This document shows, one piece after another, positions 39,001 through 45,000 of a DNA stretch of 64,000 nt. The stretch spans positions 160,001-224,000 of the forward strand of contig CAWBBV010000006.1 in the NCBI GenBank assembly GCA_963787125.1, in the 5' to 3' direction. Source of the DNA: an uncultured delta proteobacterium. Its GTDB lineage: Bacteria; Desulfobacterota; Desulfuromonadia; Geobacterales; DSM-12255. A program made the position numbers. Numbering within the stretch: position 1 is the stretch's first letter; each line of letters starts with the position of its first letter.

Positions 39001-42000
39001 GTTGACCGCTTCATGCGCTTTATCAAGTCCCGGGAAGGAGCCGCCCTGATCAGCAAACATAACAGCCTCCCGATTACTTTTCCCTACCCTTGACAAGGAG
39101 GATATAACTCATCGTTGTGGTCGTTTTACGACTACCTGACCGTTATACCCGCCGCATATAGTGCATACTTTCTATCCTCTTCCAGCACATGGTGTAAAAG
39201 CCATTTGCCGATAAAGACGATCAGCTCCTTGGTCAACTCCAGCTGATTCGTGTGACGAATCCGCTTCATCTCCTCCATCTTGAAAACAAAATTGTTATGC
39301 CTCTCGACATGATCGTCAACCTCAAAATATTCAATCCGGCGCATATACTCCTCTTCCGCCTTGAAATGATATTCGGTGTAGGCAAGCAATTCATCAAGCT
39401 TGGGGCTGACACAATTCTCGTTGTCAACATCGAGACACTCAGCGTACAAACGATTAAGAATTGAAATCAGCTTTTTGTGATGGCTGTCCAACTCCTCATT
39501 ATTGACTGAAAAATCATCATTCCAGGACATGAGCGGCATAGTCTCTTCTCCATGATTGCAGATTACCGAAACAGTGAAAACATTTGCAACGGTCTTAAAA
39601 AGGGTGACATCCGTAGACTGACAAACCTTATGGAACGTATTGCGAATTCTTTTCAGTTTATCGGCGCTCAACATAATTCAACTTGCGAACCTAAAAAGCC
39701 CGACACAGCCGGGATAAAAATCATTTGGTCAGCGGAAGAGCTTTTACAGGTTCACTGGTAATCGATCTTTCGATATTTGCACTTTTATCCCCATAAACTA
39801 CAGTGCAGTTGGTGCTGAACGGAAAATACCAATATCCGGTTTCACCGATCAGTTCTACGGTGTTGATGTTACCGTTAGCCGCAGCTGTTATTATTGAACC
39901 ATCTCCGAAAATGGGAATGAAATAGAACATATTTAATGTACAGGATGACCCTTTTTTCATTGAAGTCAGATCAATAAATTTAATATTCTCAACTCCAACT
40001 GGAGTGTTGTCGGCATACCGCAATGTCTTGGCAAGATCCTTTGTACTTGTACAACCCGAAGTACCTAGTAAAATAGTTAAAACAGCCAGCAATTTTTTCA
40101 TATCGATCCTCCTGTACCCTTTAGTCGTTGTGTCAAACTTCTTGACATGTCTTTTTGCTTTTCAGTTCTAATTTCAATGCATTACCAATCAAAGTCTTGC
40201 CTCCCCCCGTGATTCTGGTTAAGAATGCCAGTTATGGAGGGCTAGCTCATGTCGTACCTATCCAAAACTGCCCGGTTTGTTGTCTGGATTTGCTCCAAGT
40301 TTACAAAGACCGAGATTGAACAGATCGTCGTCGGGTTGTCAGATGTCCTCGAAAATCGTAATCCTGAAGTTAAGCCAAAGGACGATTTCAAAGAGAAACA
40401 TCCGAACTACAGAAACTTTATTGTCGATCCCAAGCCGCCACTGACTGAGCCCCCAAAGTTTAAAAAAAAGACCTCGATCAAAAAGACTACCGGCAACTCC
40501 TGATTGAGTACGAAACACTTCACGGAAAGTCTCTTGCTCCGGTCAAGCTCCGGGCGGGTTCATCACCGGTTCCAGTGCATGTCACCTGTCCCTGCTGCGG
40601 AGCGCCAAATACTTATCTCTACTTCAACGACGGAAAGAAGCGCTCTCAAGTTCTCTGCAAGGTTTGCTCTCAACTCTTCCAACTCCAACAGCGCTTCAGA
40701 ACCAACAGAAAGTCAAAGCTCTTCTGTCCCCATTGCGGGCTGGCTCTCTTCAGGTGGAAGTCGCAAAAGGAAGTGACCATCCACAAGTGCCCAAATGATA
40801 ACTGTCCTCACCGTATCCAGGCGCTTGCCAAGCTCAATAAAGCCGAGAAAGAGCTGATGAAAAAGAAAAGTTCTCAGTTCAAAATCAACTACCAGTACCG
40901 CGAATATCACTACAAACCGGAAGAGTTGGAACTCTCTTCTCCGGACAAACCGCCGGTCGAACTGGCGAGAATCCATAACAGCGAAAACGTGCTTGGCCTG
41001 ATTCTGACTTTCTATGTTTCATTCGCCGTTCCGGCCAGAAAAACTGCTCAAATCCTGCGCGAAGTCTTCTGTATCAAGGTTTCTCATCAGACAGTTCTCA
41101 ATTATGCCGCTGGCGCCGCCTGGCACTGCCACCGATTCAATCTCAAGCATAAAGGCCATATCGATAATATCTCTGCAGGTGATGAGACCTACATCAAGAT
41201 CCTGGGCAAGCACCATTATGTCTTCTTTTTTATCTCGGCAAAGAACCTGAAAATCTCCGCCTATCACGTGGCCGATAACAGGGGCACTCAGCCTGCCATT
41301 ATCGCTATGAATGAAGCCATCAGGACTGCTTCTGCCGATCAGCAAATAACCCTTGTCAGCGACGGAAACCCTTCTTATCCAGCTGGCATTCATTTCATCA
41401 ATGCCCAGACTGATGATTCCCAGACGATTCAGCACAAAAAGGTTATTGGCCTCCAAAACCTTGATGCCGAGTCCGAAGAGTACAGATCCTTCAAGCAGCT
41501 CGTTGAGCGGCTCAACAGAACCTTCAAGTATCATGTAAGGCCAGCAGCAGGATTCAACAGCACAAACGGTGCGGTATCTTTAACTACGCTGTTTGTGACC
41601 CACTACAACTTCCTCAGGCCTCACATGTCGCTAAAATATCTACCACCGGTGCCTTTGCAGGAGTTGAAGGCACTGCCGACCATTCAGGCTAGATGGACCA
41701 AGATCCTCTCGCTAGCTGCCTGACTTCCCGTCTTCAAAGATCAATTTACTGATTGTTGTTTTAATCTGACCAACTATCTCACGTGCCTGGTCACAGAGTG
41801 GCTTGCCCAAAATTCAAGCCAGTAACCACAAAGTAGTGAAGTCACAGTCTGGACAGACTCGGAAAAGATGCAGATGAAGGGCATCGTTTACTTTCGAGTA
41901 CTTTCCATTTCAATATCCCGGCTTTTCATGAAACTTTTGACACTATCCCTTTAGTCGTTGTGTCAAACTTCTTGACATGTCTTTTTGCTTTTCAGTTCTA

Positions 42001-45000
42001 ATTTCAATGCATTACCAATCAAAGTCTTGCCTCCCCCCGTGATTCTGGTTAAGAATGCCAGTTATGGAGGGCTAGCTCATGTCGTACCTATCCAAAACTG
42101 CCCGGTTTGTTGTCTGGATTTGCTCCAAGTTTACAAAGACCGAGATTGAACAGATCGTCGTCGGGTTGTCAGATGTCCTCGAAAATCGTAATCCTGAAGT
42201 TAAGCCAAAGGACGATTTCAAAGAGAAACATCCGAACTACAGAAACTTTATTGTCGATCCCAAGCCGCCACTGACTGAGCCCCCAAAGTTTAAAAAAAAG
42301 ACCTCGATCAAAAAGACTACCGGCAACTCCTGATTGAGTACGAAACACTTCACGGAAAGTCTCTTGCTCCGGTCAAGCTCCGGGCGGGTTCATCACCGGT
42401 TCCAGTGCATGTCACCTGTCCCTGCTGCGGAGCGCCAAATACTTATCTCTACTTCAACGACGGAAAGAAGCGCTCTCAAGTTCTCTGCAAGGTTTGCTCT
42501 CAACTCTTCCAACTCCAACAGCGCTTCAGAACCAACAGAAAGTCAAAGCTCTTCTGTCCCCATTGCGGGCTGGCTCTCTTCAGGTGGAAGTCGCAAAAGG
42601 AAGTGACCATCCACAAGTGCCCAAATGATAACTGTCCTCACCGTATCCAGGCGCTTGCCAAGCTCAATAAAGCCGAGAAAGAGCTGATGAAAAAGAAAAG
42701 TTCTCAGTTCAAAATCAACTACCAGTACCGCGAATATCACTACAAACCGGAAGAGTTGGAACTCTCTTCTCCGGACAAACCGCCGGTCGAACTGGCGAGA
42801 ATCCATAACAGCGAAAACGTGCTTGGCCTGATTCTGACTTTCTATGTTTCATTCGCCGTTCCGGCCAGAAAAACTGCTCAAATCCTGCGCGAAGTCTTCT
42901 GTATCAAGGTTTCTCATCAGACAGTTCTCAATTATGCCGCTGGCGCCGCCTGGCACTGCCACCGATTCAATCTCAAGCATAAAGGCCATATCGATAATAT
43001 CTCTGCAGGTGATGAGACCTACATCAAGATCCTGGGCAAGCACCATTATGTCTTCTTTTTTATCTCGGCAAAGAACCTGAAAATCTCCGCCTATCACGTG
43101 GCCGATAACAGGGGCACTCAGCCTGCCATTATCGCTATGAATGAAGCCATCAGGACTGCTTCTGCCGATCAGCAAATAACCCTTGTCAGCGACGGAAACC
43201 CTTCTTATCCAGCTGGCATTCATTTCATCAATGCCCAGACTGATGATTCCCAGACGATTCAGCACAAAAAGGTTATTGGCCTCCAAAACCTTGATGCCGA
43301 GTCCGAAGAGTACAGATCCTTCAAGCAGCTCGTTGAGCGGCTCAACAGAACCTTCAAGTATCATGTAAGGCCAGCAGCAGGATTCAACAGCACAAACGGT
43401 GCGGTATCTTTAACTACGCTGTTTGTGACCCACTACAACTTCCTCAGGCCTCACATGTCGCTAAAATATCTACCACCGGTGCCTTTGCAGGAGTTGAAGG
43501 CACTGCCGACCATTCAGGCTAGATGGACCAAGATCCTCTCGCTAGCTGCCTGACTTCCCGTCTTCAAAGATCAATTTACTGATTGTTGTTTTAATCTGAC
43601 CAACTATCTCACGTGCCTGGTCACAGAGTGGCTTGCCCAAAATTCAAGCCAGTAACCACAAAGTAGTGAAGTCACAGTCTGGACAGACTCGGAAAAGATG
43701 CAGATGAAGGGCATCGTTTACTTTCGAGTACTTTCCATTTCAATATCCCGGCTTTTCATGAAACTTTTGACACTATCCCTTTAGTCGTTGAAACGCACCC
43801 GGTGTAAAACAAGGACAATACTCACATTGATATTGGAATATTTTTATTGTAACGTCTCTTCGACAATTTGCAAGGTAACAGGACAGGTGGGCAGAATCGG
43901 CATGAATTACTGAAAAACAGAGTTGGTTGTTGAGTGACACCACATCGAGAGCGGATCTGTTTCATTACTAAATTCTGAACAAATTTGGAGAAACCAATTT
44001 ATGCAGAACTCATCGACTATTGTGCTGGGGACAATTATCTGCCTGACTATCACGGGCTGTGCCGACCTCCAATACCTTAATACTATTCACCTCTCAAAAA
44101 AGGAGGCCAAGTACATGGTTATTGATGACGGCAAAAGGTTTGTAATAATACCATTCAATGAAGACGCGGAGCAACTTCGCTATGCAAAATCAGTAGGCAG
44201 CATAATGAAAGGTTTCAGTTTAACGGTTGTCGACAGCTTTGTTGATATCGATGAAGCAAAAGTTGATCCGATGGGAAAAGAGTCAGATGATGCTACCCAA
44301 GTGGCATCATCCGGCGCTGGAAAGGAAGAAAAAATTTCCGGAAGTGACAATGATAAAGTTGCTGTCAATTCAACTGCTGCTGACAAAAAAACCGAATATT
44401 TTATTGAAACAATGGCTAATAAAGACGGTGACGGGACGGTAAAATTTATAAGAAGATATGACAAGACTGTCTTGGGAATATTCAGCATTTCTCCAGTCAG
44501 GTTTACTATGCGCCCCCAATTATATGCTGCCTTGGTAAAAATGAAATTGCTAACGGGCAGAAGAAGTCCATCGACCTGAGGTTTTTAGTTGCAGACCTGA
44601 TTTTTGCCGCTATTTTTTGCCCGCAAAAGAGCTGCATCCGCTGCCGCAATGATTGCCTCCTTTCTGCTGCCCGGAACTGCTTCAGCTACTCCGACAGAAA
44701 AGGTCAAATACGGCAGGGGATTGCCGTGATGATCTTCGATGCTCGCCTCCATTACCTCGCGCCGCAGTCTCTCGGCCATGATATTCGCTGTGACCGCTTC
44801 GATTTCGGGAAGGATAATAACGAATTCATCTCCACCAAAACGGGCAGCCAGAATCCCGGGCCGGCTGTTGTTGACGATCACCTGAGCCACGCCGTGAATG
44901 GCTCGGTCACCGGCCAGATGACCAAAACAGTCGTTGATCTCCTTGAAGTTGTCAAGATCGGCCATGATAAGCGATAACGGTTTACCGGCCATATTGCAGC

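Follow-up and report, generated by a model that had tools for sequence, protein, structure and literature searches.

A long IS6-like insertion sequence and its relatives insert at a fixed distance ahead of Shine-Dalgarno and ATG signals

The long IS6-like insertion sequences, among them ISCpe7, ISCbo1, ISTet2, ISHahy6 and ISHco2, make up clades VII and VIII of Harmer and Hall, or groups h and i of Varani et al. Clostridia, Fervidobacterium and other anaerobes often carry them, and their placement in the IS6 family is disputed. In the passages that describe their ends, both clades are given G2 on the left, G1 on the right, G7 and non-complementary tips (PMC6807381). The sections on long elements in two IS6 reviews present neither experimental data nor a target rule, and no Shine-Dalgarno (SD), ATG, distance or orientation rule for these clades is given there or in the relevant portions of the ISCbo1 paper, although the latter places ISCbo1 "directly upstream a gene" in most cases (PMC3098183). 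Neither "Shine" nor "ribosom" occurs in the main text of these three papers. Targeting of translation-initiation signals by IS900 and IS901 is reportedly, by its title, the subject of Doran 1997. Excerpts of two further papers attribute such targeting to IS900 and IS901, of the IS110 family (PMC2942039), one of them in a passage on the hed gene (PMC8141618), and the IS110 family is described, in the part of the source concerned, as using a DEDD enzyme guided by RNA (PMC11187229).

The window, by which we mean the whole 64-kb stretch of DNA analysed, holds two copies of one insertion sequence (Table 1). Full-length matches in the genome number 13 (12 identical, one with a single difference) and are spread over 12 sites; the element belongs to the long zinc-ribbon IS6-like group of DDE insertion sequences and has spread recently. 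Its end tips are non-complementary, and the core GTGTCAAA is common to the left and right ends. Re-insertion at a preserved signal would give rise to tandems of this kind. Its close family was found neither in viral contigs nor in phage records.

Table 1. Positions in the window of the tandem insertion sequence, its coding frames and its target.
Feature	Position	Strand	Remarks
IS copy 1	40126..41947	+	1822 bp
IS copy 2	41956..43777	+	sequence identical to copy 1; tandem as assembled
Target duplication, first copy	40118..40125		8 bp, CCTTTAGT
Spacer separating the tandem copies	41948..41955		8-mer CCTTTAGT
Target duplication, last copy	43778..43785		8 bp, CCTTTAGT
Left end	40126..40137	+	CGTTGTGTCAAA
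Right end	41936..41947; copy 2, 43766-43777	-	GATAGTGTCAAA, reading inward
Target Shine-Dalgarno	40108..40113	-	AGGAGG; GGAG core 40112-40109 is positions 14-17 outward of the left end
Target gene	39721..40101	-	126 aa, TRL-like family (PF13146); ATG is position 25 outward of the left end
ORF A	40249..40503; copy 2, 42079-42333	+	84 aa; N-terminal extension of 487-aa one-ORF homologues
A8G run	40462..40470	+	A AAA AAG in the ORF A frame; a -1 shift here would join the frames
Second frame	40464..41723; copy 2, 42294-43553	+	two zinc ribbons, helix-turn-helix region, DDE domain
Leader hairpin	40199..40240	+	stem formed by GCCTCC 40199-40204 and, at 40236-40240, the transposase's own GGAGG

In the sense used by ISfinder the element has two traits of the IS6 family: PF13610 (DDE domain, IS240 type) matched at 41.3 bits against a cut-off of 27, and 8-bp duplications flank all 12 sites. 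The catalytic residues D308, D368 and E416 (P0011 numbering) are invariant in 33 homologues. The NCBIfam equivalog NF033587 scored 76.8 bits, below its curated cut-off of 125. The narrow IS6/IS26 family of Harmer and Hall is defined by a 14-bp terminal inverted repeat, GG at both ends and a short transposase, a description that the element does not fit, with ends CGTTG.. and GATAG.. and a transposase of about 490 aa with zinc ribbons; given the NCBIfam score, it is no more than a candidate member of the strict IS6/IS26 family. Traits of clades VII and VIII are present, namely an N-terminal zinc-finger domain, G2 on the left, G1 on the right, G7 and non-complementary tips, as is the extra N-terminal extension of about 100 aa that marks clade VIII (i), since ORF A aligns with the N-terminus of the 487-aa homologues. 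However, published clade VIII elements measure 1713-1761 bp and encode 453-454 aa, compared with 1822 bp and about 490 aa, frameshifted, here, and in a quick tree the 453-456-aa proteins of the 1713-1761 bp class branched apart from the group of the window element, on the same long-enzyme side. Judged from the clade's published descriptions, the element is a candidate member of clade VIII in the strict sense. Four flanks of the 1713-1761 bp class, inspected by eye, have an SD followed at 25 by ATG (three) or ATA (one).

The first-pass annotation had described the transposase as split into frames of 84 aa and 382 aa, and both match natural 487-aa single-ORF homologues. The second frame is open from 40464, and the 382-aa ORF (40575-41723) begins within it at a GTG, 40575. 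The slippery site had been taken to be a conserved 12-mer, of which only the A8 is kept: it is present in all 12 distinct two-frame sequences that break at this place and is followed by C in nine and G in three. The A8 run is not an assembly error, because an independently assembled contig matches 40126-41919 with no difference and no gap; with its recurrence in the 12 two-frame sequences, this rules out a homopolymer artefact, and the frameshift site is real. Either a -1 ribosomal shift or a slip of RNA polymerase at A8 would join the frames.

At the element's own sites the geometry is constant. The direct repeat measures 8 bp at its longest in 12 of 12 cases, and GGAG, a motif found at 0.43% of positions per strand, always occupies positions 14-17, counted outward from the left end, in one orientation, preceded by a purine at position 13 (12/12); the repeat length and the GGAG figures agree with those first annotated. 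A gene start beside the left end had also been proposed. An ATG does stand at 21-26 in all 12 cases, but the one at C7:171771 encodes an internal Met within a signal-peptide-like N-terminus. The likely real start there, AAGGAG-N7-ATG, stands on the opposite side of the element, and this copy therefore interrupts a reading frame. Two more of the element's own sites face an ORF that is short or questionable (42 codons; 89 or 14 codons).

We tallied 183 distinct flanks of the long zinc-ribbon elements, these 12 sites included, and 98 of them have both flanks and the duplication; many of the others consist of just the left end, called from the inverted-repeat (IR) motif, and related elements are not independent. 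One element (L203) was left out of the tallies since its end call was not credible. An ATG lies 20-31 outward of the left end in 178 of the 183. GG is found at 14-15 in 12/12, 56/63 and 71/72 flanks of the SD-anchored sets, and the close relatives have GGAG at 14 in 44/63, a proportion similar to the 21 of 27 first annotated. The 71/72 set is clade VII (ISCpe7/ISCbo1-like), so that a rule first proposed for clade VIII was drawn too narrowly: clade VII, which has no N-terminal extension, is equally sharp, and the extension is dispensable for the rule. In the Bacillota long group ATG is at 24-25 in 34/36 flanks and the SD position floats. The target is thus a two-part one, in which some lineages fix the SD and let the ATG float while the Bacillota relatives fix the ATG and let the SD float. 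Three sets whose ends were set by IR and duplication and verified by copy alignment gave the register to the base, with GGAG at 14 in 11/11 (G480), ATG at exactly 24 in 7/7 (G803) and ATG at 25 in 5/6, the sixth having ATT at 25 (G512); element lineages both found in Bacillota use different registers. Where the duplication is 9 bp long, at two sites, the gap of 5 bp before GGAG is unchanged. The signal is one-sided: the far flank shows no motif and, in a crude hexamer test over 97-98 sites, a flat -10 histogram with no peak, and promoter anchoring was rejected on this basis.

GGAG as the whole target, as first annotated, does not hold. Only 5% of genomic GGAG lies at gene starts, and 15% of the best SD-matrix sites do; with a two-part target, GGAG alone therefore cannot explain site choice, and in one group it is the ATG whose position stays fixed. 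Nor do the elements never hit a reading frame, as had been claimed, since five two-flank sites lie inside coding frames, at look-alikes. Look-alike targets outside evident genes also occur: the ATG opens an ORF of fewer than 50 codons in 25 of 140 flanks, and five flanks have an SD-like core and no start. The last five would suit a transposase that reads a short GGAG only, or inserts loosely, with purifying selection leaving the copies that stand before genes, and selection is said to shape IS positions generally in the relevant part of PMC2942039. Intragenic copies do survive in this genome, however, because 15 of the 38 sites of its other multi-copy elements fall within open frames, and the ATG is retained even where no gene opens. 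Selection alone was rejected on these two counts, and the explanation by short GGAG plus selection is largely refuted and, in our estimate, very unlikely. Part of the intragenic insertions has probably been removed by purifying selection.

Taken together, the sequences suggest that the transposase probably reads the translation-initiation signal directly in double-stranded DNA. Reading would be one-sided and would take in an SD core rich in purines (GGAG/GGRG) together with an ATG some 10-12 bp past the first G of the core; the 8-bp staggered insertion would then be made a fixed distance ahead of the signal. A two-part matrix for which just the relatives served as training set assigns 88.5% of its weight in the genome to called gene starts, but it falls short of fully accounting for the element's own sites: with crude gene calls, the local expectation is 7.4 starts among 12, with P = 0.066 for at least 10 and 0.009 for at least 11. 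The weakest own site (matrix score -0.1) has a strong real start no more than about 50 bp away, a hint, at n = 1, of regional recruitment.

This shortfall and the weak site next to a strong start would be expected if the transposase were held at translation starts by a host machine, either the 30S initiation complex on nascent mRNA or a coupled RNA polymerase. The target is the ribosome's own reading signal, and such a model has already been proposed for ISLre2/TnGBS with the RNA polymerase initiation complex. Against it, one two-flank intragenic copy sits on the antisense strand of a SecA gene, splitting its Pfam domain, with the ATG exactly at 24, and a second antisense insertion is likely, from one flank only. 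GTG and TTG starts are nearly excluded although ribosomes accept them: GTG/TTG-only starts occur in 0/183 flanks and in one of four further flanks, compared with 12/51 and 16/55 non-ATG starts among SD-led long frames of two Bacillota hosts (P = 6e-4 even with a 10% baseline). The single-base register, moreover, varies between element lineages inside one host phylum. The look-alike and antisense insertions and the near-absence of GTG and TTG therefore favour DNA reading over a link to the ribosome, and we regard tethering as unlikely.

The leader bears on a different proposal, that insertion is guided by a short leader RNA, or by the 3' end of 16S rRNA, through pairing of a CCUCC-like segment with the target's SD strand. 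The hairpin motif of the window element recurs in relatives, and a CTCC or CCCCC motif is found 70-80 nt inside the left end in all three groups. In clade VII this motif and the target base vary together. Of 46 targets of CTCC elements, 43 carry GGAG and none GGGG, and of 24 targets of CCCCC elements, 13 carry GGAG, seven GGGG and four other sequences (Fisher P = 1.4e-4, for sites that are not independent). In the CCCCC elements the match between the motif and the element's own SD is no longer perfect. However, the motif is well explained as a hairpin that hides the transposase's own SD, the covariation comes from some two lineages and does not hold for the Bacillota long group (GGGG in 3/6 CTCC elements), and most leaders, by eye, lack an anti-start CAT despite their ATG targets. 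Folding of the 135-nt left end gave a non-significant z-score of -0.46. To our knowledge, no RNA-guided DDE transposase of such a type acts without Cas proteins. We consider guidance by the leader quite unlikely; were it correct, the target could be reprogrammed by altering a few leader bases. A model with protein alone explains the covariation only via shared ancestry or an internal binding site. Longer leaders were considered as products of self-insertion, and no second IR was seen by eye.

Target bases are A-rich around the core and past the ATG, and the second codon begins with AA in 40/63. Together with the residual excess of true starts over the matrix, this composition could point to an adaptor, either a host DNA-binding protein or the shape of AT-rich start-region DNA, with the transposase reading the last few bases. 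But the rule spans distant hosts and follows the element phylogeny, and we know of no host factor of this kind; we rate an adaptor the least probable of the readings considered.

Within the favoured reading, direct recognition by the transposase, the zinc ribbons are a tentative candidate for the reading module, somewhat short of an even chance. Structural searches with the ribbons returned generic matches only (best Z 3.0; no Foldseek match at E<=0.001); a specific fold was discarded on this ground, and a new fold is not implied. The first ribbon is InsA-like, which was counted against the ribbons as target reader; in IS1 the InsA domain binds the element ends. The unequal ends would place the left end beside the signal, and orientation would follow from the unequal tips. 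Matching duplications at 12/12 sites fit simple insertion and are also compatible with resolved cointegrates; a simple-insertion or circle pathway is slightly favoured over IS26-type cointegration. As to benefit, most insertions would spare both the gene and its ribosome-binding site, and the transposase gene would be crossed in antisense by host transcription.

A base-precise, group-wide rule is a defining trait of the long IS6-like elements and supports separating them from IS26. By implication the transposase reads the ribosome's two-part signal, measuring from the SD in some lineages and from the ATG in others, and landing sites become predictable. Polar effects are predicted on the gene behind the signal: a consensus scan for an outward promoter in the left end gave 0/22 in clade VII, 5/47, scattered, in the others and none in the window element, and a conserved one was thus not found. 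The rule also suggests a possible tool for oriented insertion just ahead of intact genes.

In the literature searched we found no description of an SD-ATG insertion rule for long IS6-like elements. The window element and those of clades VII and VIII have in common the layout of zinc finger, N-terminal extension, HTH and DDE domain and the 8-bp duplication. IS26 and the other short IS6 elements also have the PF13610 DDE domain and an 8-bp duplication, but their enzymes are short and lack zinc fingers, both tips are GG, and they form cointegrates. IS26 shows little target preference; by contrast, 12 of 12 sites of the window element are sequence-selected, with matching duplications. The best Foldseek match of the full-length model was ISCth4 (E 2.5e-7), an IS256-family, copy-out/paste-in element; at TM 0.33, rmsd 17.9 and 13% identity the match is weak and is no evidence of family or pathway. 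ISCth4 uses its two ends asymmetrically, according to the portion of PMC7780238 that treats them. TnGBS, ISLre2 and ISKra4 (p-MULT), with a transposase of another family, are anchored on the -35 box of sigma-A promoters, with insertion 15-17 bp upstream of it for ISLre2/TnGBS, whereas the window element and its relatives are anchored on SD/ATG and show no promoter signal at their insertion sites. IS900 and IS901 insert between the SD and the start codon and put an antisense ORF under the host ribosome-binding site; the window element differs in its DDE enzyme, its insertion upstream of an intact SD and its 8-bp duplication. The known precedents are thus IS900, ISLre2/TnGBS and one remark on ISCbo1, and the choice by a transposase of a two-part translation-start signal at a fixed distance is apparently an unusual form of target selection.

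The host genome carries 13 full-length copies of the 1822-bp element at 12 sites, and just one copy departs, by one difference, from the sequence that the other 12 share; in the window, one 8-mer stands before, between and after the two tandem copies. The 8-bp duplications and the GGAG offset reported in the first-pass annotation were confirmed at every one of these sites. The target duplication is exactly 8 bp at 12/12, GGAG (0.43% of positions in the genome) occupies positions 14-17 outward of the left end at 12/12, on the strand opposite to the transposase, and ATG lies at 21-26 in all 12 flanks. 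No invariant position was found in the far flank of the 12 sites, and neither a motif nor a -10 peak across the 97-98 sites, relatives included, with both flanks. Right after the last duplication the window reads CGTTG (43786-43790), the first five bases of the left end, either by chance or as the remnant of a further copy.

Ends of related elements were set by the terminal inverted repeat (IR) motif, the duplication or copy alignment, blind to the flank. From close-relative loci L001-L102 we excluded 3 own copies, 21 loci without a left end and 11 with too little flank, and merged near-duplicates. In the resulting 63 flanks, GGAG begins at 14 in 44, GG occupies 14-15 in 56, and ATG falls at 20-31 in 61. 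The clade VII set (340 aa, no N-terminal extension) comprised ISCpe7-annotated records and the 1293- and 1308-bp elements of the BKT015925 plasmids, whose IR is the one given for ISCbo1 in the supplement listing (PMC3098183). Its 72 distinct flanks have GGAG at 14 in 58 cases, GG in 71 and ATG in 70; since these elements obey the same rule, the N-terminal extension is dispensable for targeting. The behaviour, put forward as a clade VIII trait, is thus shown by close relatives but is not confined to that clade. The Bacillota long group measures by a different ruler from the SD (Shine-Dalgarno)-anchored groups, with ATG at 24-25 in 34/36 flanks and an SD register scattered over 10-15. Within single genomes, GGAG is at 14 in 11/11 (G480), ATG at 24 in 7/7 (G803), and ATG at 25 in 5/6 (G512), the sixth site having ATT at 25. 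Four flanks of the 453-aa size class, read by eye, have an SD with ATG (three) or ATA (one) at 25, and a loose contig end from sequencing run X5 again has GGAG at 14. With all groups pooled, ATG lies at 20-31 in 178 of 183 flanks, related elements not being independent samples; both flanks and the duplication are present for 98 of the 183, and many further loci that gave no usable end were excluded from the counts. The target rule is real, broader than first described, and amenable to testing.

GGAG as the sole target, the original description, did not survive, given the ATG of the pooled flanks and the distribution of GGAG itself. With a crude call set of 3634 genes, candidate starts hold just 5% of the host genome's 36,527 GGAG sites, which rules out this motif as the whole target; the fraction at starts is 15% for the top-scoring sites of an SD matrix and 24-29% where an ATG is present as well. 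Seven other multi-copy elements in this genome interrupt an open frame at 15/38 sites, so intragenic copies are not cleared by selection. A two-part matrix of the SD and ATG region, trained on relatives, places 88.5% of its weight on starts, but its site-by-site expectation is 7.4 starts in 12 (P of at least 10, 0.066; of at least 11, 0.009), so sequence accounts for most, perhaps not all, of the pattern. Besides this element the genome has at least seven multi-copy elements, 1.15-3.5 kb long; two of them (1.74 kb and 1.9 kb) lack a clear duplication and are possibly site-selective. An unrelated 1.67-kb IS (family A1680) has one copy (contig C14 of the host, near 56743) directly in front of AGGAGG-ATG; its other five copies are not so placed.

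Reading of a two-part signal in double-stranded DNA by the transposase is probably the best mechanism: a reader carried by the element would choose the SD-ATG target. Among 140 flanks, 110 precede an ORF that reaches 50 codons or continues beyond the end of the locus; behind the ATG of 25 others the ORF is shorter, and the last 5 lack a start. A long frame spans 7 of the 93 sites with 150 nt on either side; we judged four real (C7:171771, L168, L184, L247) and the other three doubtful, and added L159, whose spanning frame begins nearer the site. These interrupted frames contradict the claim that the element never hits a reading frame. In L247 (G803:C3:741409-745833) the element splits the DEAD domain of a SecA-family gene (profile 4-130 and 127-289) at an SD-ATG look-alike on the antisense strand, where ATG takes position 24, as is usual for this element; a second SecA copy is probably present in the host. 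L056 resembles this case, on one flank only. Starts with GTG or TTG only were found at 0/183 flanks and 1/4 further flanks, against a rough baseline of 12/51 and 16/55 among SD-led long frames in 200 kb from each of two Bacillota hosts. The register tracks element lineage rather than host phylum, and where the duplication is 9 bp (two sites) GGAG is still separated from it by 5 bp. The look-alike and antisense hits, the near absence of GTG and TTG, the lineage-bound register and the 9-bp sites all favour an element-borne DNA reader. Guidance by a ribosome tether fits poorly with hits where no gene starts, with the GTG/TTG deficit relative to hosts, and with a register that ignores host phylum. 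One observation speaks against the DNA reader: the weakest own site adjoins a strong real start.

All groups share a recurrent CTCC or CCCCC motif, 70-80 nt in from the left end, that could mask the SD of the transposase gene by forming a hairpin with it. Motif and target base covary in clade VII: elements with CTCC have 43 GGAG, 0 GGGG and 3 other targets, those with CCCCC 13, 7 and 4. Participation of the leader RNA in target choice, which this covariation might suggest, is nevertheless very improbable, because the covariation comes from about two lineages and does not hold for the Bacillota long group, and the motif is not accompanied by a conserved anti-ATG. The leaders of L029-L031, L048, L052, L088, L095, L098 and L102 contain MITE- or REP-like palindromic inserts of 120-240 nt with a duplicated CCTCC hairpin. 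Read on the outward strand, the leader motif of L119, L125, L129 and the window element has the form of an SD directed out of the left end; in some elements a start comes after it, with about 18-20 codons that stop within the IR or close to it, an arrangement not conserved in L001.

Features of the tandem element and its transposase frames (window coordinates)
Feature	Position or size	Remark
IS copy 1, 1822 bp	40126-41947	Identical to copy 2
IS copy 2, 1822 bp	41956-43777	Tandem with copy 1
ORF A	84 aa	Aligns with natural proteins of 487 aa encoded by one ORF, such as P0011
Second frame	Open from 40464	With ORF A, matches P0011-type proteins end to end

The second frame scores above the cut-off for PF13610 and below that of the NCBIfam IS6 equivalog. 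In the P0011 model (mean pLDDT 88.6), a pair of helices at the N-terminus is followed by a linker, two zinc ribbons, a helical region and a DDE-type catalytic domain; the best structural match of this model, to ISCth4, is a weak one, and the zinc-ribbon region folded separately gave generic matches only. The two frames meet at an A8 run, and an independent contig agrees with 40126-41919 without a gap. Shift sites in IS1 and IS3 elements include A AAA AAC and A AAA AAG. Relatives' transposase loci are in one frame in 67 cases and split somewhere in 24; all 12 distinct sequences split at the window element's break, its own included, have A8, followed by C in 9 and G in 3. Of the proposed split transposase joined by a -1 shift, the split at A8 and the homology of both frames to 487-aa proteins stand, and a frameshift there would join them; polymerase slippage at A8 is a possible alternative to a ribosomal shift. 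L007/L017, L008/L018 and L256-L258 are split elsewhere, at about residue 150 or about residue 200, so frame breaks have multiple origins. In L212 (G405:C1:1558000-1571500; 1904-11080, minus strand), the frame of a clade VII transposase that lacks its final codons and right end continues for about 2700 codons more. Two further very long open frames overlap it, and no tandem repeats were detected.

Excluding 38 sites with too little flank and 4 without a neighbour, 56 sites could be classed: an upstream gene on the same strand is no more than 30 bp away at 18 and farther off at 25, and 13 are divergent. We found no conserved outward promoter in the elements' left ends, and the window element gave no terminator-like site. 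Across the bounded elements that were measured, C/G on the transposase strand is 1.02-1.89 (window element, 492/369); coding sequence, the reference used here in place of other IS families, has medians of 0.95, 0.78 and 0.73. The transposase strand has more C than G, which typical coding strands of the hosts do not, and the strand that the host would read through is C-poor; we hypothesize that such read-through occurs and silences the transposase by antisense. L113 and L116 are tandems whose spacer is the site's own duplication, which is what re-use of the preserved signal by a second copy would produce, and further junctions occur in L190 and L034. Circle re-integration is an alternative source of tandems, as is assembly error, the window's assembled tandem included.

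Read inward, the ends of the window element are CGTTGTGTCAAA (left) and GATAGTGTCAAA (right). They match the pattern that Harmer and Hall describe for the long bacterial group: G2 left, G1 right, G7 and non-complementary tips (PMC6807381). Their text holds that this group ought to be removed from the IS6/IS26 family (PMC6807381), while that of Varani et al. retains it in IS6 (PMC7986276). Named clade VIII elements, as described, are shorter (1713-1761 bp, 453-454 aa, vs 1822 bp), and the window element is a candidate member of clade VIII in the strict sense; its placement relative to the 453-aa size class comes from a quick tree.

We found no description of an SD/ATG distance rule in the literature searched, a scope outside which lay ISfinder and TnPedia entries, subscription papers and both reviews' supplements. 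The nearest earlier statement, in the text of PMC3098183, is that ISCbo1 is mostly directly upstream of a gene. IS900 and IS901 are described as inserting between SD and start codon (PMC2942039, PMC8141618), whereas the window element inserts upstream of the SD. ISLre2/TnGBS are reported upstream of promoters in a single orientation (PMC3942029); they share that orientation preference with the window element but are anchored on promoters rather than on SD and ATG. Targeted insertion sequences are known, and among them the SD-ATG rule of long IS6-like elements appears to be new.
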